This document shows, one piece after another, positions 514-24,000 of a DNA stretch of 24,000 nucleotides (positions are counted from its first letter, which is position 1; each line of letters opens with the position of its first letter). Position numbers and translations under genes: made by a program. The notes beneath the pieces were generated by a model, which saw only the letters and a list, made by a program, of their open reading frames with translations, had not been told where the DNA came from and ran no database searches. This DNA is from Thermoplasmatota archaeon (lineage in GTDB: Archaea > Thermoplasmatota > E2 > DHVEG-1): assembly GCA_025457885.1 (NCBI GenBank), contig JALOTN010000015.1, positions 1-24,000 on the forward strand. The letters run 5' to 3'.

Positions 514-2190
514 TTAGGCAGGGATGACCCAGACACCTAACAGTAGTCGCTGGGTGATGATACCCCGGAAATCACTGTAGGGGAGATACCCGCAGCACGG
601 GTACTCACCATAGGTTTCTGTGAGGATTTGTGTCGATCGGTCTTGTCCGATGATTGCACTTACTTCAAGGACTTTTATGGGGAGGAACCGGAAACCAATG
701 GAGGCGGATTTATCCAGACTTGTGATCGAGCCGACCAGCCAGATTCGAGACTTCCCAAGAAACGGGATTTTCACGGGAAGCGTCGCCCATTCGCTCTCTG
801 CTCCCCGGGAATCCTTCGCTTTGGCTTTCACCGTGAATGTCTGCTTGGTATCCCAGGTGTGATTCACAACAAGTGCAGTTCCAGAATCAAACGGCCCCAG
901 CCAGTCGGTGGTCGTTCCATCACCCCAGTCCACAAAATAGGACACCTGCTGGTCCTCCGGGTCGAGAGATACAAGAGTATATTCATAGGTGACCCCTGGT
1001 TTTCCCTTCGCTGGTCCGCTGATTGATGGTTTGGCAGGAGCAGAGTTATTCGTTATCCCCAGATATTCCCTTAGAAACTCATCCCAGTGGGTGTTCATAG
1101 CAAAATTCGTCTGTTCATAGGGCGATGGTAATGTCTCATATCGCAGACTATCATTATAATCCCCGGCGCGTCGTGGGAAGTAGATGCTTAACCCATGAAC
1201 AGGATCACCAGAGAGATGATTATTGGCAATCACCGCGGTGTCCATGGTGGTTTGTATTTCTTCCCGGATGCTGGTAAACTCTGGGTCACTGATGGTGCAC
1301 AGATCAAGAAAATCATAAAAATCAATATAATAATCAATGTACCATAACCGGGCATACACCCGTGCACTCTCAAGAGCCGTGGTTATTTGCTCTTGATATT
1401 CATCTAAATGATCCAGGAGGTAAACCGCTAATCCATCGACTGATTCTTCAAGACTTGATACATAACTCAGGTTCGTCGCCGCCATCGTCGTCTTCATCCG
1501 GTCCTGTGTATAATCATGGGGGACGAAATGATCCACCATCGTAACACAAAATTCAGAGGGAGTCATACTTGGGTCATTCTTCAGATCGGTGAATGCGAGC
1601 ACATAAGGCCAATCATACAACATCCCGCATTCTGGGTAAGCGATAAAGTAACGGACACAGGAGTTGATCTGATAGGCTACCTCCATATTCCCCGTCATGC
1701 AGGTCTCAATCCCAAGGATGTCCAGTTTGTCTGCACCGTTGCTGGTGATCTGATTTAATGCATCCAACAGCTCAGGCATGGTGATCATCTGACCCCGTCC
1801 ATGTTCATCCCAACAGACTCCTTGCCAGCCACACCCCTTGTTACTTGAGATGAACAATGCGTAATTCTCTGCAGAAAGCTCATCTTTAATCTTAGTGACG
1901 AACTGGACAAGCGTGGCAGGATCATCCATGCTCGACTCCGCAGGCCATGTCTGTTGCACGAGAGTCGTTCCATCCAGATAATACAGCTTGGTATCCGAAG
2001 CGGTGTTCTGATCGATGAGCACAGAGATTGCAACCTGCTCAGAGGCTCCACATGCTCTGATGTTCTGCAGCACCTGACCTTGCGCTGCTGAGAGATTGTT
2101 AGTGGTAATAGCAGCCTGGCCTACACCACTGACAAACACAGTGATGAGGATCATACAAAACAATTGTTTTCCAAGATGGTTCTTCTTCAT
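514..2190 (-). CDS. secreted clostripain-like (peptidase C11, clan CD) protein with a C-terminal PKD cassette and tail domain
   Basis: 558-aa ORF with an N-terminal signal-like MKKNHLGKQLFCMILITVFVSGVG. It has the C11-like layout: YALFISSNKGCGWQGVCWDEHG, then LDILGIETCMTGNMEVAYQ (Cys codon 1699-1701). The PKD cassette is GPAKGKPGVTYEY...YFVDWGDGTTTDWLGPF...KAKAKDSRGAESEW (nt 763-1038). A TAGGGG SD-like motif lies at 2198-2203, and an oligo-T run follows the stop on the coding strand. Confidence 0.8.
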   Translation of the reverse strand: MKKNHLGKQLFCMILITVFVSGVGQAAITTNNLSAAQGQVLQNIRACGASEQVAISVLIDQNTASDTKLYYLDGTTLVQQTWPAESSMDDPATLVQFVTKIKDELSAENYALFISSNKGCGWQGVCWDEHGRGQMITMPELLDALNQITSNGADKLDILGIETCMTGNMEVAYQINSCVRYFIAYPECGMLYDWPYVLAFTDLKNDPSMTPSEFCVTMVDHFVPHDYTQDRMKTTMAATNLSYVSSLEESVDGLAVYLLDHLDEYQEQITTALESARVYARLWYIDYYIDFYDFLDLCTISDPEFTSIREEIQTTMDTAVIANNHLSGDPVHGLSIYFPRRAGDYNDSLRYETLPSPYEQTNFAMNTHWDEFLREYLGITNNSAPAKPSISGPAKGKPGVTYEYTLVSLDPEDQQVSYFVDWGDGTTTDWLGPFDSGTALVVNHTWDTKQTFTVKAKAKDSRGAESEWATLPVKIPFLGKSRIWLVGSITSLDKSASIGFRFLPIKVLEVSAIIGQDRSTQILTETYGEYPCCGYLPYSDFRGIITQRLLLGVWVIPA

Positions 2191-2396: not shown

Positions 2397-2468
2397 AGCC
2401 CCGTAGTGCAGCGGTTAGCACAAGAGACTCTGGATCTCTAGACACCAGTTCGAATCTGGTCGGGGCTG
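2397..2468 (+). tRNA. tRNA-Gln (anticodon CUG)
   Basis: Hand-folded cloverleaf. Acceptor AGCCCCG/CGGGGCT, D-stem GTGC/GCAC, anticodon stem AGAGA/TCTCT with loop CTCTGGA (anticodon CTG). T-stem ACCAG/CTGGT with loop TTCGAAT, discriminator G, no encoded CCA. Confidence 0.93.
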
Positions 2469-2472
2469 TCCA

Positions 2473-4173
2473 ATGAGTGTGGGGACCATGGAGTCAACAG
2501 AGCAAGTAACCAAGGATTTTATCCGGGAAATCATTGATGAGGACAACAAAACGAATAAGTACAATGGTAGGGTCCATACCCGATTTCCCCCGGAACCGAA
2601 CGGGTACCTCCATATCGGTCATGCGAAATCCATCTGCCTGAATTTCGGAATCGCTGAGGAATACAAAGGCTTCTGTAACCTCCGGTTCGATGACACAAAC
2701 CCAGCCAAAGAGGAGCAGGAGTACGTCCAGTCCATCATCGATAACGTTAAATGGCTTGGCTTTGACTGGGAGGATCGTTTGTTCTTCGCATCCGATTATT
2801 TTCCTCAGATGTACGAGTATGCCCTGCAACTGATAAAAACAGGGAAAGCGTATGTCGATGATCTCCCTGCGGATCAGATCACGGAATATCGTGGGAACCT
2901 GACAAAACCTGGGAAGAACAGCCCGTTTCGAGACCGCTCCATCGAGGAGAACCTTGATTTATTCCAACGGATGAAGGCAGGGGAGTTTGCTGATGGTCAG
3001 AAAGTCCTGCGTGCGAAAATCGACATGAGTCATCCGAACCTGAACATGCGCGATCCTGTGATGTATCGGATCCTGCATGCGAGCCATCATCGGTCTGGTG
3101 ATGCTTGGTGTATTTACCCGATGTACGACTGGGCGCATGGCCTGGAGGATTCTCTCGAAGGGATTACTCATTCTATCTGTACTCTTGAGTTTGAGAATCA
3201 TCGACCCTTATATGATTGGTTCCTGGATGCCCTGGGGGTGTATCATCCGCAGCAGATTGAGTTCGCCCGGTTGAATCTGACTTATACCGTGATGAGTAAG
3301 CGGTTGCTGCTGCAATTGGTGGATGGTAACTTTGTCTGTGGCTGGGATGATCCTCGTCTGCCCACCATCAGTGGGATGCGTCGTCGAGGCTACTCCCCGT
3401 CAGCGATCCGGTTGTTCTGTAAACGCATTGGTGTTGCAAAATTCAACAGCATCGTTGATTTCGAGTTCCTGGAGCATAACATTCGGGAGGATTTGAATAA
3501 AACAGCCCCTCGGTTCATGGGAGTCCTTCGTCCATTAAAGATCATCATCGATAACTACCCAGCGGGTCAGACCGAGGAGCTAGAGGCGGTCAATAACCCG
3601 GAAGACCCAGGGATGGGATCCCGGAAGATACCCTTCTCACAGACATTGTATATCGAGCAGGATGATTTCATGGAGAACCCACCTAAGGATTATTACCGAC
3701 TCGCGCCAGGTCGAGAGGTTCGTCTCCGATACGCCTATTTCATCAAATGCACCGACGTGATCAAGAAAGATGGAAAACCAATCGAGCTGCATTGCACCTA
3801 TGATCCTGCTACGAAAGGAGGGTACGCACCGGATGGTCGGAAAGTGAAATCCACGATTCATTGGGTGTCAGCATCCCATGCGATACCTGCGGAAACACGG
3901 CTGTATGACCGGTTGTTTACAATTGCGGATCCCGCCGGACAGAAAGGCGCTGATTTCAAAGAGTTCCTCAACCCACATTCCCTTGAAGCGCTTCGTGATT
4001 GCCGTGTCGAACCAGCGATTGCAACCCTCAACGCGTTTGATCGTTTCCAGTTTGAACGTCTGGGGTATTTCTGTGTCGACCCATCGACAACGAAGAACGC
4101 ACTGGTGTTGAACCGCACGGTTGAACTGCGTGACTCCTGGGCGAAACACCAGAAAACCGCACAAAAGAAATAA
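2473..4173 (+). CDS. glnS: glutamine--tRNA ligase (GlnRS), bacterial-type class I aaRS
   Basis: 566-aa ORF. HIGH signature LHIGHAK (CAT ATC GGT CAT at 2611-2622) and KMSKS-type VMSKR (3289-3303). The N-terminal block [10 protein letters not shown]...[44 protein letters not shown] and the C-terminal ELRDSWAK are near-colinear with E. coli GlnS as I recall it. An alternative in-frame start lies at 2488. Confidence 0.95.
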
Positions 4174-4234
4174 CCAAGAATTACTCGAATGCATATCCTT
4201 AAATAAAATCAAAGAATCCCGGTATGAGTCACCT

Positions 4235-4305
4235 AGCCCCGTGGTGTAGTGGCAACATTTTGGCCTTTGGAGCCAACGTCGGCGGTTCAAATCCGCCCGG
4301 GGCTG
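4235..4305 (+). tRNA. tRNA-Gln (anticodon UUG)
   Basis: Hand-folded cloverleaf. The acceptor AGCCCCG/CGGGGCT is identical to the upstream tRNA. Anticodon stem TTGGC/GCCAA with loop CTTTGGA (anticodon TTG). T-stem GGCGG/CCGCC with loop TTCAAAT, discriminator G, no CCA. Confidence 0.93.
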
Positions 4306-4306
4306 C

Positions 4307-4312
4307 TTTTTT
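4307..4312 (+). terminator. oligo-T terminator closing the tRNA-glnS-tRNA unit
   Basis: A T6 run starts 2 nt after the tRNA-Gln(UUG) discriminator. This is the archaeal-style terminator seen after most genes in this window. Confidence 0.5.
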
Positions 4313-4425: not shown

Positions 4426-4593
4426 ATGTATAGAGAAGAAGGACGCGGTCGTTATGGGGGCGCACCACGAGAAATGCATAAAGCGACCTGTGCAGATTGT
4501 GGGAAAGAATGTGAAGTTCCGTTTAAACCGAATGGTACAAAACCTGTGTACTGCAGGGATTGTTATCAGCAACACCGACCACAACGATACTAG
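4426..4593 (+). CDS. small zinc-ribbon protein with a CxxC-x17-CxxC domain (55 aa)
   Basis: Absent from the ORF track because it is under 60 aa. Translation: MYREEGRGRYGGAPREMHKATCADCGKECEVPFKPNGTKPVYCRDCYQQHRPQRY. CADC and CRDC are separated by exactly 17 residues. A taggaag SD-like motif lies upstream, a TATA-like aaagtatatgtttaaat about 50 nt upstream, and a long T-rich tract downstream. Confidence 0.75.
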   Translation: MYREEGRGRYGGAPREMHKATCADCGKECEVPFKPNGTKPVYCRDCYQQHRPQRY

Positions 4594-11889: not shown

Positions 11890-12285
11890 ATGAAAACGAA
11901 AACCCTTCATCAGTCCGTTGTCTTTGAGGCAGAGCCTCATCAGGTATTTGAGATGTTGATGGATTCGAAAAAACATGCGGCATTCACTGGTGCGAAAGCG
12001 AAAATCGGTCGGAATGTCGGGGACAGCTTCAGTGTCTGGGATGACTGGGCAACTGGTTCGAATGTGCAGATTGTTCCTGATAAGAAGATTGTGCAAAAAT
12101 GGCGGGGTGCTGATTGGCCGAAGGATCATTTTTCACAGGTGATGTTTGAATTAAAAAAAATCGATCGGGGGACTCGTTTGGATTTTACGCAGACGTTTAT
12201 CCCTGAGGCATTGTATGAGGAGATTGCCCAGGGGTGGAAGGAATGGTATTGGGAGAAGCTTCGGGCTTTTTTTGCGAGAAAATAA
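11890..12285 (+). CDS. SRPBCC-superfamily protein (AHSA1 / activator of Hsp90 ATPase homologue-like domain)
   Basis: 131-aa ORF. LHQSVVFEAEPHQVFEMLMDSKKHAAFTG... and the C-terminal GWKEWYWEKL are typical of the family. Confidence 0.8.
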   Translation: MKTKTLHQSVVFEAEPHQVFEMLMDSKKHAAFTGAKAKIGRNVGDSFSVWDDWATGSNVQIVPDKKIVQKWRGADWPKDHFSQVMFELKKIDRGTRLDFTQTFIPEALYEEIAQGWKEWYWEKLRAFFARK

Positions 12286-12340
12286 ATTCTTAAATGAGTA
12301 TTAAATTATTTGGAGTGTCGGTTTTTTTTATTTTTAATTA

Positions 12341-13006
12341 TTATTCGACACTGAAAAGGCTGTCTGCGAGGTCCTCGAAGGAGTAGTTTGTGTAGGTTGA
12401 TGTGATTGTCACAATACTTCCTTCGGCAGTGGAGGTGTATTGCTCTTTGAGTGGTACGCCTCTGTCGTTCCAGAGCCAGAGGGTGACCGTCGTGGTGTTT
12501 CCACCTTGGTTGGGATGGTATTGGATGATGGTGGTAGGAATACCGCTAAGATTCTCGGTTCCTGTGATGGTAAGGGTCTGGTTGTTGAGGAGGTTTTGAA
12601 CCATGTCGGTGGTGGTTGGTTGAGGGATGATCTGTTGTGAATTGAGTTGATAGGAATTCGTGGTGTTGTCATAGACGTAGATGCCTTCTGGTCGTTTGAT
12701 GATGGAAAGGTTGGTGGTTATATTTCCGATGGTGCTGTTGGTGTTGATAGTGGTGATGGTGACGTCTTCTTTGAGGTAGGGTGTTTTTTGCCAGATTTTC
12801 ATAGTAGTGGTTTGGGGGATGATCCCGTCGATGACGAACGTGGTGTCAATCTGGTAGGAGACGGTTTCGAGGATCGCTGCTTTTTCTAGGATTGTTTGGA
12901 TGGTTTCTTCTGGTGTTGGGGTTTGTTGTTGGGTGCAGCCGCTGTTTAAGAGGATGATACAGGTGAGTATGGTGATGATTCCAAGGAGTCGTATGGGTTG
13001 ATTCAT
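12341..13006 (-). CDS. Thr/Asn-rich lipoprotein, possibly a LolA-like fold
   Basis: 221-aa ORF. Signal plus lipobox LLNSGC. MKIWQKTPYLKEDV...IYVYDNTTNSY resembles outer-membrane lipoprotein-sorting/LolA-like families. Eight N-x-S/T sequons. GAAGGAA SD. Confidence 0.65.
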   Translation of the reverse strand: MNQPIRLLGIITILTCIILLNSGCTQQQTPTPEETIQTILEKAAILETVSYQIDTTFVIDGIIPQTTTMKIWQKTPYLKEDVTITTINTNSTIGNITTNLSIIKRPEGIYVYDNTTNSYQLNSQQIIPQPTTTDMVQNLLNNQTLTITGTENLSGIPTTIIQYHPNQGGNTTTVTLWLWNDRGVPLKEQYTSTAEGSIVTITSTYTNYSFEDLADSLFSVE

Positions 13007-17082: not shown

Positions 17083-19797
17083 TTAATATCCAACCAGGTG
17101 GCGGAGAATGGGGAAGAGGTTCGGGAACATCCCGAGCAGCTGCTGGATGAACCCAAGCAGCGTGAATTTGTATTCCGTTGGCATGGCAACGGTGAGTTCT
17201 CCCCAGTCGCTTTCCGAGTTCATCGAGTCCTTTGCTTTGACCTTCACGGTGTAGGACCCCTCGTCTGCCCAGGAATGGGTCTGATGGATCTGGGTGCCTG
17301 AGAGATACGGTCCTAGCCAGTCCGTGGTGGTCCCATCGCCCCAGTCCACAAAGTAGTAGATGGTCTGATCCTGAGCATCAGTTGAGACCATGTTGAACAA
17401 ATAGGGGTTTCCTGGTTTTCCCTCTGCAGGTCCAGTGACCTCAGGGACCGTTGGTGGTGTGTTATCGGTGATGGTGACGGGTAATTCCTCAGACCAGCCG
17501 CTGCCAGCTCCCCAGACGTCACGGGCTTTGACTTTCACGGTATAGGACCCAAGCACCGTCCAGGTGTGTTTCCCGGTCGCGGTCGCCCCAGAAGAATATG
17601 GTCCAAGCCATCCGCTGTTGCTGCCATCGCCCCAGTCGAACAGGTAGAAGATCTCCTCATTGTCCGGCTCAGTGGCTTGAGAGGTATAGCTGTATTCGAC
17701 GTTCCAGATCCCCAGGGTTGGTCCCACGGGTTTCGAGGGTGTTGTCGGAGGGAGACTTGGATGAGGTGTCCGAAGCATCTGAGCGGGGTCGCCGAAGAGG
17801 AGGCAGCATTGGACGATCTCTCGCCATGTTCCACCATCCCAGTCGATCATCGGTGCCATCATGTCCTTTGAATGAGCATGGGACCGGCCGATCTGCCAGT
17901 TCCCAAGATCAAGGGAGAGGTTCTCCACATCAAGGAAGAATCGCCAGAACTCTTTGGTCTGGAACGCGCTACTGGAATTTGTGCAGTAGAGGTTTCCCCA
18001 GCCGTAGCCTGTGTTATAGACACAGCCGAAGGCAAGCTCGACATCAGAGTGGAACAGCATGGTTTCCAGCACCCCGTCATCGCCATCGTTGAAATCACCG
18101 CAGTGGCAGCCGTAATCATGGATGAAGAACGGACGGGTATTATGGTAATCAGATTCCCAGTCATCCGCGTAGACATCCAGGGACATCTGGTTATCTGCAT
18201 GGGCGATCCCACTGATGATTGTGACAAGGTCGTTGTTGATTGCATCTCTGAATCCGGAGACTCCTGCTCCGTTCCATCCAGGGTTTGGTGAGGGTGCCTC
18301 GGTGTATTTCACGGAAAGGTTATACATATTCCCGGGGTTGACAAGGTTCCAGGTCTCAAAACCATACTGGAAACCAACCCAGCTGGGGAATTGATCCGGA
18401 TCAGGGCCAAGCCATTCATTCGTCCCCTTTATCGCGCTGTAGTCCATGAAATCATCACCCTGGCAGCTCCACCCAGTGTTCCCACCATAGAAAGCGGCGT
18501 TGTCCAGGTATTCCCAATCCGCGCTGTTTGCATAGAAGAAACTCTTCGTCAGCCAGTTAGAGACATCCTGAGGAACATCACAAGTGACTCGACCAACGAA
18601 CAGTTCTGCATAAAAGTCAAACCCACTATCTCCTTCCTCGCCCCATGAGCCATCGGAATCACCATTGAAGTTGTTGTCAAGGTTGCTCCAGTATAAATCG
18701 GAGTCGACGTTTGACTCACCACCTGAGGACATCAGACGAGCAGGGATGTAGTTGGAGTCACCAGCGACAAGGATATACTGTGTTCCCCAGTCCTCGTATG
18801 CGTCTTTACAGAACTCACGGACATGGGCTTGTTGGTCATTGAAGGGGGTTGTCCCAAAGTAATCAGGACATGCGTCGATGTCCTGGACGGTGACTAACGT
18901 GCTGCTCAACCCATCACCCGCATGTTGATCCATGAGACTTTCCCAGTTATAGGGCGTCTCTGTGGTGACGTCCCAGTAATCCAGACCGCTTTGGGTGGTG
19001 GTGATAATCACATAATCATAATTCCCACTTGGGTCACATAACCCACCAGGGTACTCAAGGATCGGCATATCAGCGGTCTCATACAGTGGTAGTATCTCCG
19101 GATTGGCGACAAATGACTGCACGTAGCTAGCATCAGCAGGACTGTCCCGGAAGAATTCACTGACGTAACCAGTCTTCTCAAGAGTAATTGTTACCGTCAT
19201 CGTCGGGTAGAACATCAACGCTCCTGTGCCAGGGGTGTACTGCAACGGGCTTAATCCAAAATCAAGGATTGCATACCCATGGGAGTACCCAACATGATGT
19301 TGCGTGCGAATCTCGGAAGGATAGGGAGTGCTTGCGGAGTAGATCTCTAGATTTTTTTCAAACACCTGTGGCTCAGTACTGCCGAACGGAACAGATTTCT
19401 GATAGGGAAGAACCGGGTGCGTGAGTAAATCGACTGGTGGTGAAACCAATACCGGTGTCCCAGTGACGTGGATGTTGATAACTGCTGTCTTAGGTGGGAG
19501 GAGCAGTTGTATCATCTTCATGGGTAACTGAGGGGCGCCTACTTCGGTGCCTCTCCCAATTAATCCTTGCATGTTCACCAAAGTATATTCGGAACCATCC
19601 GTAGCGATTGTTTGATACTCTGGCTCACGGAAACTCCAGGTATACGTCAATTGAGAGCTGCTTATTAGTCCTTGATTGTTCAAATCCTTTGGGTCAACAA
19701 GTGCTGTTGTTACCGATGTAGTGAGCATCAATACACAAATTGCTACACCAACAACTAGTCTGCCTACTTTAAAATTATGAGTTGTTGTTCTCTTCAT
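17083..19797 (-). CDS. secreted gingipain-like peptidase (family C25, clan CD) with two PKD cassettes and an amphipathic C-terminal tail
   Basis: 904-aa ORF with a signal/anchor (MKRTTTHNFKVGRLVVGVAICVLMLTT). C25 hallmarks: YVIITTT, YILVAGDSNYIPAR, DLYWSNLD, ELFVGRV. The His block is IISGIAHADN (His codon 18199-18201). The Cys block is FIHDYGCHCGDF (Cys codon 18106-18108). PKD cassettes at 17470-17730 and 17182-17442; tail at 17086-17181. Confidence 0.85.
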   Translation of the reverse strand: MKRTTTHNFKVGRLVVGVAICVLMLTTSVTTALVDPKDLNNQGLISSSQLTYTWSFREPEYQTIATDGSEYTLVNMQGLIGRGTEVGAPQLPMKMIQLLLPPKTAVINIHVTGTPVLVSPPVDLLTHPVLPYQKSVPFGSTEPQVFEKNLEIYSASTPYPSEIRTQHHVGYSHGYAILDFGLSPLQYTPGTGALMFYPTMTVTITLEKTGYVSEFFRDSPADASYVQSFVANPEILPLYETADMPILEYPGGLCDPSGNYDYVIITTTQSGLDYWDVTTETPYNWESLMDQHAGDGLSSTLVTVQDIDACPDYFGTTPFNDQQAHVREFCKDAYEDWGTQYILVAGDSNYIPARLMSSGGESNVDSDLYWSNLDNNFNGDSDGSWGEEGDSGFDFYAELFVGRVTCDVPQDVSNWLTKSFFYANSADWEYLDNAAFYGGNTGWSCQGDDFMDYSAIKGTNEWLGPDPDQFPSWVGFQYGFETWNLVNPGNMYNLSVKYTEAPSPNPGWNGAGVSGFRDAINNDLVTIISGIAHADNQMSLDVYADDWESDYHNTRPFFIHDYGCHCGDFNDGDDGVLETMLFHSDVELAFGCVYNTGYGWGNLYCTNSSSAFQTKEFWRFFLDVENLSLDLGNWQIGRSHAHSKDMMAPMIDWDGGTWREIVQCCLLFGDPAQMLRTPHPSLPPTTPSKPVGPTLGIWNVEYSYTSQATEPDNEEIFYLFDWGDGSNSGWLGPYSSGATATGKHTWTVLGSYTVKVKARDVWGAGSGWSEELPVTITDNTPPTVPEVTGPAEGKPGNPYLFNMVSTDAQDQTIYYFVDWGDGTTTDWLGPYLSGTQIHQTHSWADEGSYTVKVKAKDSMNSESDWGELTVAMPTEYKFTLLGFIQQLLGMFPNLFPILRHLVGY

Positions 19798-21919: not shown

Positions 21920-22169
21920 TGTGGTACCCAACTTGAATGATGTTCCATCCTATGTGATATTACCGATGTCCCCTATATAATCTTAACGATTGTTAATACC
22001 GTATTGATGCGATAAAATAAATGGGGATTTTGGTTAAAGATGTACTAAAATGGATGTCCCGACAGAACGGTTTTCCCTTCAGACGAGTAAATGATGTTTT
22101 TAAATGGTGATATCAACCTATTTATAGGAGAACATTGTTATAAAATATGTAACGGAGGAATGAAAAAGT

Positions 22170-23366
22170 ATGAAGAAAGGGATAATTTGTATTTTTATTA
22201 GTGTGGTATTGATTGCGACAATAATCCCAGTAACAAGTCATATCACAAAAAACACCTTGAGAGATAAAACGGAGGAGATTCAATCATCAGGGACGACAAC
22301 GACATGGATGAAGATCATAGGTGGAGATGATAGTGATAGTGGTTTTTCAGTTCAGCAAACATCCGATGGAGGATATATTTTCACGGGTGATACCCATAGT
22401 TATGCTGTGGGTGGAGATGACGTATGGTTAGTAAAAACAGATACCATAGGGAATGAAGTTTGGAATAAAACTTTTAGTATTTCGAACAATTCAAAAGATA
22501 TTGAACGAGGGACAGATATCCTTCAAACTTCTGATAACGGATATATCATCATTACAGACATAGGGTTGATTAGAACTGATGAAAATGGAAATGAACTTTG
22601 GAGAAAAAATCTCACTAATGATGGATCATCGATGTGCCTTACCGATGATGAATGTTATGTGATAGCAGGGTATAATTTCACAGGTAATTGCTTGTGGATC
22701 GTGAAGGTTGATACAGACGGAAATGAAGTCTGGGAAAAAAATTATGGACCTATTAGATTTGATGGATGTTCCATTAAGCAAACTACTGACCATGGGTTTA
22801 TCACTGTTGGGTGGAACTGTATTGTAAAAACTGATGAAAACGGAGAAAAAGAATGGAATATCACCTTTGCCGTTGGAACATGGTGTATGGATGTTGTTCA
22901 AAGCAATGATGGTAATTATACAGTCATTGGTTGGAAAGGAGCTTGGGCTCATAATAACACTGGTTGGTTTCTGAGGATAGATGCAAAAGGGCAGATACTG
23001 TCTATAAAGAATTATCCAAGGTTTTTCACTGGATATGTGTTGAATAAATGTGTCCAAACACCGGAGGGTGGTTATCTAATAACCGGAGAAGCGGATAGCG
23101 AACTAAAAAATTGGGGGCATCTCCATTTCAGACTTCTCGTGTTAAAGACTGATGGAAAAGGAAATGTTCTCCGGAGAAACACCTTTGGGGGTGGAGAACA
23201 CTTAGAGTGCGGTCTTGATATCCAGGAAACCTCTGATGGTGGTTACATCGTCCTTGGGAGTACCAATAGATATGGACCACGCAACACGGACGCATGGCTG
23301 ATAAAAACAGATTCAAATGGGAACGTCCCATTCGTATATCGATTCCTAAGTTTATTCCGGAATTGA
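22170..23366 (+). CDS. secreted repeat protein, predicted 7-bladed beta-propeller-like (SDGGY...WL.KTD..GN..W repeats)
   Basis: 398-aa ORF with an N-terminal signal/anchor (MKKGIICIFISVVLIATIIPV). There are seven ~45-57-aa repeats, e.g. QQTSDGGYIFTG...DDVWLVKTDTIGNEVWNKTF and QETSDGGYIVLG...DAWLIKTDSNGNV. GGAGGA SD lies 11 nt upstream. Confidence 0.8.
   Translation: MKKGIICIFISVVLIATIIPVTSHITKNTLRDKTEEIQSSGTTTTWMKIIGGDDSDSGFSVQQTSDGGYIFTGDTHSYAVGGDDVWLVKTDTIGNEVWNKTFSISNNSKDIERGTDILQTSDNGYIIITDIGLIRTDENGNELWRKNLTNDGSSMCLTDDECYVIAGYNFTGNCLWIVKVDTDGNEVWEKNYGPIRFDGCSIKQTTDHGFITVGWNCIVKTDENGEKEWNITFAVGTWCMDVVQSNDGNYTVIGWKGAWAHNNTGWFLRIDAKGQILSIKNYPRFFTGYVLNKCVQTPEGGYLITGEADSELKNWGHLHFRLLVLKTDGKGNVLRRNTFGGGEHLECGLDIQETSDGGYIVLGSTNRYGPRNTDAWLIKTDSNGNVPFVYRFLSLFRN
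22302..23363 (+). repeat. seven tandem degenerate protein repeats (intragenic)
   Basis: The repeat anchors [TS]-[DS]-[DN]-G-[GN]-Y...(W/L)-[LI]-[VI]-[KR]-[TI]-D-x-x-G-[NE/KQ]-x-x-W recur seven times in the translation. Confidence 0.7.
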
Positions 23367-23409
23367 AAGAATAATGATCTAATTCATAATTTTGTCAAGG
23401 GAAGATAAT

Positions 23410-24000
23410 ATGAATAAGGAACCTCTGATTAGTAAATGGTTAGTGGTTGGAATCATTCTCTTATTTGTTACAATGGCATTTTTACAAACAGGTACAAGCC
23501 AAACGTTAACGGCATATAGAGATATAGTTACAAAAACCTCATACGAGAAACACGCAAATAATATGAATGATATTTTTATCAATTATTCCATCAATAATAA
23601 AGGACGCATACTGAGATTCAATGTTCTTCTTCTTGGAACAAACATCATCTCTTTACCTACACAAAAAATAGAGAAACCCCCAGCCCCAACATCGAAGGGT
23701 AATTGGTTGTTTGTTGGCGGTATTGGACCTGAAAACTATACAAGGATTCAGGATGCGATTAATGCTTCTTCTGATGGTGATACAGTATTTGTCTATAACG
23801 GTATTTATCAGGAAGAACGAATTACGATAAACAAATCTATCACGTTATTTGGTGAGGATAAAAATAATACTATTCTTGATGGACAATATAGTGAAGGTAT
23901 GATCCTTCTTGTGTCATCCTCTGATGTCGTAATTCGTTGTTTTACGTTGAAAAATTGTAAGAGCGGTGGTTTTTATCAGGCAATCTATCTCTGGGGTAAT
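23410..24000 (+). CDS. secreted right-handed parallel beta-helix (NosD/pectin-lyase-fold) protein, 5' partial; runs off the window
   Basis: Not in the ORF track because no stop falls within the window. The frame is open from ATG 23410 to 24000 (197 codons). Signal/anchor KWLVVGIILLFVTMAF. NYTRIQDAINASSDGDTVFVYNGIYQEERITINKSITLFGEDKNNTILDG is the canonical start of NosD-like beta-helix proteins. Confidence 0.75.
   Translation, partial: MNKEPLISKWLVVGIILLFVTMAFLQTGTSQTLTAYRDIVTKTSYEKHANNMNDIFINYSINNKGRILRFNVLLLGTNIISLPTQKIEKPPAPTSKGNWLFVGGIGPENYTRIQDAINASSDGDTVFVYNGIYQEERITINKSITLFGEDKNNTILDGQYSEGMILLVSSSDVVIRCFTLKNCKSGGFYQAIYLWGN

Follow-up and report, generated by a model that had tools for sequence, protein, structure and literature searches.

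Can an archaeon charge its tRNA-Gln directly with glutamine? Reviews up to 2022 hold that no archaeon has glutaminyl-tRNA synthetase (GlnRS; PMC9499178 among them), while another states that "almost all archaea" are without it. The reason given for the enzyme never having entered archaea is tRNA incompatibility (PMC9499178), and E. coli and yeast GlnRS cannot charge archaeal tRNA-Gln (PMC2330236). According to Tumbula et al. (2000), as given in PMC2330236 and PMC9499178, archaeal tRNA-Gln has been shaped by the amidotransferase GatDE, cannot be charged by GlnRS and so blocks lateral acquisition of the enzyme. The question is raised again by a 24,000-nucleotide (nt) stretch of Thermoplasmatota DNA, hereafter the window (assembly GCA_025457885.1, contig JALOTN010000015.1, positions 1 to 24,000, forward strand), in which a gene for a bacterial-type GlnRS, glnS, lies between genes for both tRNA-Gln isoacceptors. 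An earlier note on this DNA had described a compact tRNA-glnS-tRNA-oligo-T unit and set it, rightly, against the literature view that archaea lack GlnRS. It proposed that a laterally acquired enzyme sits between its two substrates and might replace the indirect route, in which glutamyl-tRNA synthetase (GluRS) acts together with GatDE. From comparison of this locus with its relatives, we consider it probable that a bacterial glnS was gained once, that the native tRNA-Gln genes were retuned to a G73 discriminator and that GatDE was kept. The unit, whose elements were all recovered where they had been described, comprises the following features.

2344-2357, + strand: element resembling a B recognition element and TATA box (BRE/TATA; gaaaag ttatatat), ~40-50 nt upstream of tRNA-Gln(CUG); putative promoter, by match to the consensus
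2397-2468, + strand: tRNA-Gln(CUG) (Rfam RF00005, 67.8 bits, E 4.7e-13; ARAGORN Gln/ctg)
2469-2487, + strand: 19-nt spacer, probably the glnS 5' untranslated region; purine-rich GGGGA resembling a Shine-Dalgarno sequence at 2481-2485, no TATA box, no T-run
2488-4173, + strand: glnS, bacterial-type GlnRS; 561 amino acids (aa) from the conserved ATG, 566 aa from 2473
4197-4209, + strand: second BRE/TATA-like element (ccttaaataaaat), inside the 61-nt spacer between glnS and tRNA-Gln(UUG); putative promoter
4235-4305, + strand: tRNA-Gln(UUG) (Rfam 63.2 bits, E 8.6e-12; ARAGORN Gln/ttg)
4307-4312, + strand: oligo-T run (T6), archaeal-type terminator, directly 3' of tRNA-Gln(UUG)

The glnS gene, its relatives and its host

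The 566-aa open reading frame (ORF) at 2473-4173 encodes the Pfam tRNA-synt_1c catalytic domain and two anticodon-binding domains (PF03950 and PF20974). It scores 730.8 bits on the NCBIfam glnS equivalog TIGR00440 (cut-off 425.8), covering all of the model (1-524 of 524), while it stays below the cut-offs of the GluRS models and gives weak GluQRS hits. Match scores to PDB chains are 720 bits for P. aeruginosa GlnRS, ~698 for E. coli GlnRS, ~463 for eukaryotic GlnRS and at most 273 for GluRS. The earlier note had described an N-terminal block nearly colinear with E. coli GlnS, along with HIGH and VMSKR signatures; both signatures are present, and the protein aligns end to end with the E. coli and P. 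aeruginosa enzymes, with 57.6% identity to the former. It has neither a YqeY tail, the fusion model being covered at 7-564 of 769 positions only, nor a eukaryotic N-terminal domain, and its alignment with eukaryotic chains starts at about residue 250.

The E. coli GlnRS sequence used as reference had the expected residue wherever a literature-numbered position was checked. Its H40/H43 and M268-S269-K270 have their counterparts in H47/H50 and M274-S275-K276, a match found in each of the seven archaeal sequences compared. Likewise identical in all seven (E. coli numbering) are R30, Y211, C229 and Q255, which we take to form the glutamine pocket seen in E. coli GlnRS structures; L136, which acts as a wedge to open the 1:72 pair; and R341, R402, R410, Q517 and R520, which read the anticodon. 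Ratios of nonsynonymous to synonymous substitution (dN/dS) among archaeal glnS lineages are 0.03-0.05, with dS saturated at 1.4-2.7, and the gene has long been under strong purifying selection. The window encodes an intact bacterial-type GlnRS, predicted to glutaminylate tRNA-Gln.

A GlnRS-derived paralogue with some other activity would need to have kept all of these features. Such a protein might supply GatDE as a GluRS-like enzyme specific for tRNA-Gln, or might modify tRNA as GluQRS does. The family does have offshoots of this kind, namely GluQRS, represented here by weak hits, and H. pylori GluRS2 (PMC2777447), and an enzyme making Glu-tRNA-Gln would fit the retention of GatDE described below. 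Nevertheless, the pocket and all anticodon-contact residues are invariant, the protein reaches 731 bits on the glnS equivalog while falling below the GluRS cut-offs, and it has both anticodon-binding barrels, unlike GluQRS. We therefore regard a changed activity as very improbable.

Two further features of the protein were considered as possible adaptations. Where E. coli has D235, which reads G3:C70, the archaeal enzyme has an Asn, within a "LEFENHR" motif common to the nearest bacteria. We rejected it as an archaeal adaptation to C3:G70, since bacteria with an adjacent G3:C70 tRNA-Gln have the same Asn; together with its presence in the nearest bacteria, this points to a residue that was inherited and is not adaptive. 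Six bacterially conserved positions are fixed otherwise in the archaeal clade; K399D, A510L and G513F, close to the anticodon site, are among them, as is R130T, adjacent to I129 at the acceptor-end hairpin. These substitutions are leads only.

The relationships of the enzyme were examined in a neighbour-joining tree of 197 sequences and 525 columns (7 archaeal; 81 bacterial, namely E. coli and 80 from named genomes; 109 database representatives), with sampling that also took in eukaryote-like sequences with N-terminal extensions. The archaeal sequences form a clade in 100 of 100 bootstraps, and in 98 this clade is nested among bacterial sequences to a depth of three splits or more. Among the matches listed, all of them bacterial, the highest identities are 68-72% (Pirellulales, Anaerohalosphaeraceae, Anaerolineales, Acidobacteriia and Nitrospiraceae), and the G+C content at third codon positions of glnS, 0.566, lies within the range of the neighbouring genes (0.33-0.59). 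Taken together, the nesting, the identities and the codon composition indicate one old transfer of glnS from a bacterium to an archaeon, followed by vertical descent. The lateral gain of a bacterial-type enzyme, as first proposed, is thus borne out by the equivalog and PDB scores and by the bootstrap nesting within bacteria.

The contig itself is archaeal and belongs to a Thermoplasmatota/MBG-D lineage of sediment (MBG-D standing for Marine Benthic Group D). Its glnS product is identical to MCU0850400.1, from a metagenome-assembled genome (MAG) named Candidatus Thermoplasmatota archaeon, and more than 120 protein clusters (90% identity) are 84-98% identical to it, all named ones being Thermoplasmatota, Thermoplasmata or Euryarchaeota. 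Close relatives include the GlnRS of the MAGs M11B2D and M9B2D, both treated as MBG-D (also named Thermoprofundales) by Zhou et al. 2018 (PMC6461988). This assignment fits the other genes of the window, among whose products are PQQ propellers, DUF996, and PKD-domain peptidases of the C11 clostripain-like and C25 gingipain-like types. Peptidases of these two families reportedly form the MBG-D signature described by Lloyd and colleagues in 2013. The archaeal genomic context that the earlier note had read from the letters is accordingly sustained by the MCU0850400.1 identity, the M11B2D and M9B2D relatives, DUF996 and the BRE/TATA-like motifs.

Secreted cysteine peptidases occur near the glnS module in the window (514-2190 and 17083-19797, both on the - strand) and in the flanks of the related loci L001, L084 and L216 (L numbers denote loci retrieved in this study). 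The set around the module includes C11 and C25 peptidases with PKD domains, C1 papain-like peptidases in relatives and a chagasin-type inhibitor (I42), a combination that marks MBG-D as protein degraders. We speculate that free glutamine, plentiful from peptide catabolism, could favour a direct GlnRS.

Fifteen archaeal loci, from independent JGI, ENA, NCBI and Logan assemblies and with contigs of 961, 240 and 200 kb among them, all keep the order tRNA(CUG)-glnS-tRNA(UUG), with one, L088, ending after glnS. An arrangement retained in 15 of 15 independently assembled loci is not due to chance. By contrast, the outer neighbours vary: a C11 peptidase, an I42 inhibitor or a molybdopterin oxidoreductase upstream, and a zinc-ribbon ORF, a beta-eliminating lyase or PKD proteins downstream. 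The ORF from 2473 to 4173 is present as first described, but its start was probably placed too early; the second ATG, at 2488, is probably the true start, since L084-L086 have TTG in place of the first ATG and a length of 561 aa is found in most homologues.

The motif "gaaaagYtatatatga" is kept at equal distance from tRNA(CUG) in all archaeal loci with available upstream flank. The spacer from tRNA(CUG) to glnS is 19 nt in loci of the window type and 33-40 nt in L089-L091; it is GC-rich, with no TATA box and no T-run. A gap of 19-40 nt leaves no room for a promoter, which implies that tRNA(CUG) and glnS are probably co-transcribed. The element in the second spacer reads "gcttaaataaaatcaaag" in L001 and L084-L086 and "aattaaattcaatc" in L089. 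In the window, L001, L084-L086 and L089, the base G73 of tRNA(UUG) is immediately followed by a run of T4-T8, while in L082/L083 and L216-L218 only TT or T follows, with no longer oligo-T run. We propose that the promoter 5' of tRNA(CUG) would drive a joint transcript of this tRNA and the glnS mRNA, from which RNase P and tRNase Z would free the tRNA, leaving an mRNA with a leader of 19-40 nt. The tRNA(UUG) would be supplied from the second promoter plus read-through, and the oligo-T run would mark the end of the unit.

Other features of the window lie outside this unit. A 55-aa zinc-ribbon ORF (CxxC...CxxC; 4426-4593, + strand) is found just 3' of the module, and an equivalent small gene (Pfam zf_Tbcl_2) also follows tRNA(UUG) in L082, L084 and L087. 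Positions 12001-13006 have a very strong GC skew (0.44) over a 221-aa Thr/Asn/Gln-rich, lipoprotein-like ORF (12341-13006, - strand) with no Pfam match. At 22001-24000, G+C content is 0.37, against a window mean of 0.45, and a 398-aa ORF (22170-23366) is likewise without a Pfam match; this segment may be foreign or fast-evolving.

The two tRNA-Gln genes and their discriminator base

The Rfam tRNA model and the ARAGORN anticodons (CTG and TTG) agree with the tRNA-Gln boundaries and identity given at the outset. An alternative ARAGORN frame for tRNA(CUG), 2396-2472 with U73 and CCA, was rejected: it absorbs "tcca" and is out of register, the relatives have tcag or tcaa, and Rfam backs 2397-2468. 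Both tRNAs have A1:U72, G2:C71, C3:G70, G10 and G73, with no encoded CCA, so the combination of A1:U72 with G73, G2:C71 and G10 noticed earlier is present in full. In addition, U35 and G36 of the anticodon are present, and positions 37 and 38 are G and A.

Overall, the window tRNAs share 82-85% identity with archaeal tRNA-Gln genes that have the same anticodon, against only 51-64% with tRNA-Gln adjacent to bacterial glnS. The tRNA-Gln(CUG), which is nearly invariant across the 15 loci, has 77-82% identity to archaeal A73 tRNA-Gln(CUG) and 62-64% to the bacterial glnS-adjacent genes, and tRNA-Gln(UUG) has 81-85% identity to its archaeal A73 equivalents. The bacterial glnS-adjacent tRNAs have U1:A72, G3:C70 and, in three cases of four, an encoded CCA. 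By these comparisons, the tRNAs are native archaeal genes.

At four of 40 bacterial glnS loci (L012, L018, L019 and L028; Chloroflexia, Desulfobacteraceae, Thermodesulfobacteriota and Anaerolineales), a tRNA-Gln(CUG) lies ~120-700 bp away; linkage of the synthetase to its tRNA also arises in bacteria. These loci prompted us to consider a bacterial tRNA-Gln co-transferred with glnS, a scenario that we rejected on the tRNA sequences. They also bear on a more radical doubt, that the locus is artefactual, whether because the contig is bacterial, because the assembly is chimeric or because a bacterial glnS-tRNA cassette was binned into archaeal MAGs. In its favour are this bacterial linkage and the identity to bacterial GlnRS of up to 72% among the matches listed. 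However, the tRNA-glnS-tRNA unit recurs in all 15 loci, long contigs included; the tRNAs are of archaeal type in their A1:U72, their lack of CCA and their overall identity; and both the BRE/TATA motifs and the flanking genes, for DUF996, PKD-domain proteins and C11/C25 peptidases, are of an archaeal kind that is typical of MBG-D. The artefact reading is effectively refuted already, and we assign it next to no probability.

The discriminator base sets the tRNAs of the GlnRS clade apart. G73 is present in all 25 pattern-matching tRNA 3' halves of GlnRS loci and in five further, off-pattern halves that were read directly; the tRNA(UUG) of L088 lies beyond its contig end. When metagenomes were scanned for this 3' half with A73 substituted for G73, at least 120 contigs matched; all 122 pattern matches outside GlnRS loci have A73, by design of the scan, and no GlnRS is encoded in the 80 of these A73 loci that were tested (L092-L171). 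Among the matches listed, ~35 are archaeal tRNA-Gln genes in which A73 comes after an acceptor stem, AGCCCCG/CGGGGCU, identical to that of the window tRNAs. For the tRNA-Gln discriminator, A73 is the archaeal and G73 the bacterial state according to the review PMC9499178, and the GlnRS-linked tRNAs depart from the canonical archaeal A73 throughout. Read against archaeal tRNA-Gln with the same acceptor stem, G73 would be the derived state, and a change from A73 to G73 the step that suits these tRNAs to the enzyme, a point absent from the earlier note. The two window isoacceptors share only 67% identity, less than each shares with its A73 counterpart, so G73 was most likely fixed in parallel in both genes, which points to selection.

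E. coli GlnRS relies on G73 as a major identity element, since this base stabilises the hairpinned acceptor end. The E. coli tRNA-Gln identity set, reportedly established by Jahn, Rogers and Soll in 1991, includes U1:A72, G2:C71, G3:C70, G10, G73, U35, G36, A37 and U38. Measured against it, the archaeal tRNAs have G2:C71, G10 and G73, and a 1:72 pair that is weak but reversed (A1:U72, or G1.U72 in L082/L083). A1:U72, the determinant read by GatDE (PMC2330236), is present in 13 of 15 loci. In the other two, both tRNA-Gln genes begin with G (L082, 9910-9981 and 11754-11824; L083, 219-290 and 2063-2133), giving G1.U72 with G73 kept. This G1.U72 pair may mark a relaxed GatDE determinant. The tRNA(UUG) of L082/L083 and L216-L218 also shows a compensatory change from C6:G67 to U6:A67.

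Two observations from the tRNA survey stand apart from this argument. The pair C12:G23, named as an archaeal feature by PMC9499178, did not hold in the archaeal tRNA-Gln genes retrieved and was not used. The pattern scan also caught a 9-kb contig (L122:3245-8061; Ga0207764_100228) with 36 tRNA genes in ~5 kb.

GatDE and the indirect route

If GlnRS charges these tRNAs, what has become of the indirect route? GatD and GatE query sequences were verified against PDB 2D6F; a tblastn search found a Thermoplasmatota GatD on L190, which then served as query. In GCA_035527635.1, GatD (HUS99797.1, on DATLAF010000141) occurs together with GlnRS (HUS99808.1, on DATLAF010000143), and the same two proteins are also found together in one ENA assembly; this GatD is full length and has its catalytic motifs. 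M11B2D (GCA_002900545.1) has GlnRS on MUGE01000080 and GatD on MUGE01000036, and its gatE is among the transcribed genes in PMC6461988 Table S5. GCA_002900555.1, probably M9B2D, has GatD as well. Across the lineage, GatD shows 67-100% identity over more than 120 clusters and a conserved neighbourhood, and GatD contigs and GlnRS contigs are alike in G+C content. GlnRS therefore coexists with GatD, GatE or both in at least two GlnRS-bearing MAGs, where it adds to the indirect route and does not replace it. Plausibly, GatDE has been kept because archaeal GluRS still mischarges tRNA-Gln.

The earlier suggestion that the module could replace transamidation is thus not supported, given the intact GatD of GCA_035527635.1 and M11B2D with its GlnRS, GatD and transcribed gatE. 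The earlier note had also named three circumstances that together would speak against a special glutamine-decoding module. Two of them hold, in that GlnRS is vertically inherited and widespread in the lineage and GatDE is retained; the third, a lack of special synteny, does not, as all 15 loci attest.

Functional replacement could still be argued if GatD and GatE were relics, mis-binned genes or proteins serving some other purpose. Both tRNAs of L082/L083 have G1.U72 and not the A1:U72 read by GatDE (determinant from PMC2330236), and no GatD could be tied to the G1.U72 assembly GCA_002634275.1, look-ups from two GatDs having landed in other assemblies. Moreover, GatD and GlnRS were never found on one contig. 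Yet GatD is full length with catalytic motifs, and its sequence identity, spread over clusters and conserved neighbourhood argue for vertical retention. The listing of M11B2D gatE as transcribed, the two MAGs with both genes, the GatD of GCA_002900555.1 and the matching G+C contents likewise speak against replacement, which we consider unlikely.

In the account that we favour, by which GlnRS was added to a retained GatDE route, an ancestor of the Thermoprofundales clade would have gained a bacterial glnS once, and the gene would have come to lie between the host's own tRNA-Gln(CUG) and tRNA-Gln(UUG). The enzyme would charge both tRNAs directly with glutamine, recognising them through the bacterial set: G73, G2:C71, G10, U35/G36 and a weak 1:72 pair that the Leu136 wedge would open. 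The change from A73 to G73 in both isoacceptor genes would be the step that made native tRNA-Gln usable. The indirect route of GluRS and GatDE would have continued alongside, and because the A1:U72 determinant of GatDE is kept in most sub-lineages, the same two tRNAs are probably competent for both routes.

Several points weigh against this account. The tree is a neighbour-joining tree only, and the sister group, and with it the donor, varies among bootstraps, the most frequent sister, Planctomycetota, appearing in ~28%. The A73 scan fixed the acceptor 3' strand and required A73, so it is silent on the frequency of G73 among archaea that lack GlnRS. The E. coli identity set has G3:C70, A37 and U38 where these tRNAs have C3:G70, G37 and A38. 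With no contig found that has both GatD and GlnRS, their co-occurrence rests on MAG binning. Finally, the two systems might be orthogonal, with the G73 tRNAs served by GlnRS alone, G73 acting as an anti-determinant for archaeal GluRS, and GatDE serving a separate, unseen set of A73 tRNA-Gln. The retention of GatDE would suit such a division, as would the A73-type tRNA-Gln that is common in Thermoplasmatota relatives and adjoins gatD in L190. Archaea normally have one gene per tRNA isoacceptor, however, and both isoacceptors are already beside glnS. L190 represents a different lineage, with an intron in its tRNA and a GatD only 54% identical to that of the GlnRS-bearing MAG, and an A73 tRNA was seen in no locus of the GlnRS clade. 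Orthogonality therefore seems to us quite improbable.

If GlnRS and GatDE do share their tRNAs, the clade could be a living intermediate in the passage from indirect to direct Gln-tRNA synthesis. A73 would have given way to G73 in parallel in two genes; dual identity, A1:U72 plus G73, would let both routes act on the same tRNAs; and the operon would keep the enzyme together with its retuned substrates. The G1.U72 sub-lineage would represent a further step, towards dropping GatDE. We offer this larger reading tentatively, as a possibility to which we give somewhat less than even weight.

The GatD search also yielded observations outside the GlnRS clade. On L190:120-1554 (Ga0164318_10045245), from another Thermoplasmatota lineage, a gatD in divergent orientation lies beside an intron-containing tRNA-Gln(UUG) with A73, followed after 3 nt by tRNA-Glu(UUC); the tRNA-Gln(UUG)-tRNA-Glu(UUC) pair is also present in L101. 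The gatD-tRNA arrangement is an indirect-pathway counterpart of an enzyme gene beside its tRNA substrate. Although GatD and GatE are regarded as confined to archaea, some of their records have bacterial names, "Petrotogales bacterium" (GatD P0514) and "Clostridiales bacterium oral taxon 876" (best GatE hit, PMC6461988 Table S5), reflecting either mis-binning or transfer from an archaeon to a bacterium.

Significance and comparison with known systems

No description of GlnRS in Thermoplasmatota or MBG-D was found in the full-text literature searched (subscription literature lying outside that scope). GlnRS sequences of the clade are already public and machine-annotated, and the enzyme family is known; the novelty lies in the joint occurrence of an archaeal host, retuned native tRNAs, a conserved tRNA-glnS-tRNA linkage and coexistence with GatDE. 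The statement that archaea never have GlnRS, held by reviews for ~25 years, is contradicted by an abundant sediment lineage. The locus offers a natural counter-example to the hypothesis of Tumbula et al. and makes it testable, because the enzyme and both tRNAs are defined, as is a candidate switch of one base per tRNA (A73 to G73), and the old pathway persists. It also provides an instance, in an archaeon, of a synthetase gene that is apparently transcribed jointly with its cognate tRNA, and a GlnRS/tRNA pair, evolved in nature and with identity elements of hybrid kind, that may be of use in orthogonal-pair engineering. If the larger reading, of a living intermediate, is true, a switch to direct Gln-tRNA synthesis is under way in the one domain thought never to have switched.

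Compared with the bacterial enzymes of E. coli (PDB 1GTR/1QTQ) and P. aeruginosa (5BNZ), the archaeal GlnRS has the same domain order and length and ~58% identity to the E. coli protein. HIGH, MSK, the glutamine pocket, the Leu136 wedge and the anticodon-reading arginines are all shared. The differences lie in the host, which is archaeal, and in the tRNA bodies, which have A1:U72, C3:G70, G37 and A38 in place of U1:A72, G3:C70, A37 and U38.

The archaeal route of non-discriminating GluRS and GatDE (M. thermautotrophicus, PDB 2D6F; PMC2943598, PMC2330236) operates on the same A1:U72 family of tRNA-Gln, and GatD/GatE occur in the same MAGs as GlnRS. Here, however, a predicted direct-charging enzyme has been added, the discriminator is G73 and not A73, and one sub-lineage has G1.U72. 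A GlnRS-annotated gene in Asgard archaea (Hodarchaeales/Kariarchaeaceae, Heimdallarchaeia), which receives a passing mention beside cox genes (bioRxiv 10.1101/2024.07.04.601786), is comparable by annotation alone, the preprint discussing neither its type nor its tRNAs or GatDE. We set aside a "GlnRS" of Pyrodictiaceae in PMC13140500 (2026) as a mislabel, since the entry cites K01883 and EC 6.3.5.7, which are not GlnRS identifiers.

As an arrangement, the module recalls pylT-pylS, in which, as is generally known, a synthetase gene beside its tRNA likewise forms a compact decoding unit. In that system tRNA and enzyme travel together, whereas here only the enzyme would be foreign, the tRNAs being native and retuned. 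The coexistence of two routes has a precedent in Deinococcus, Thermus and Bdellovibrio (PMC1865053, PMC4206432), where a direct synthetase and a tRNA-dependent amidotransferase also occur in one genome. Their GatCAB, however, is explained by Asn-tRNA synthesis, while GatDE is specific for Glu-tRNA-Gln (PMC2330236), so that the two routes in the MBG-D lineage would overlap on the same product.

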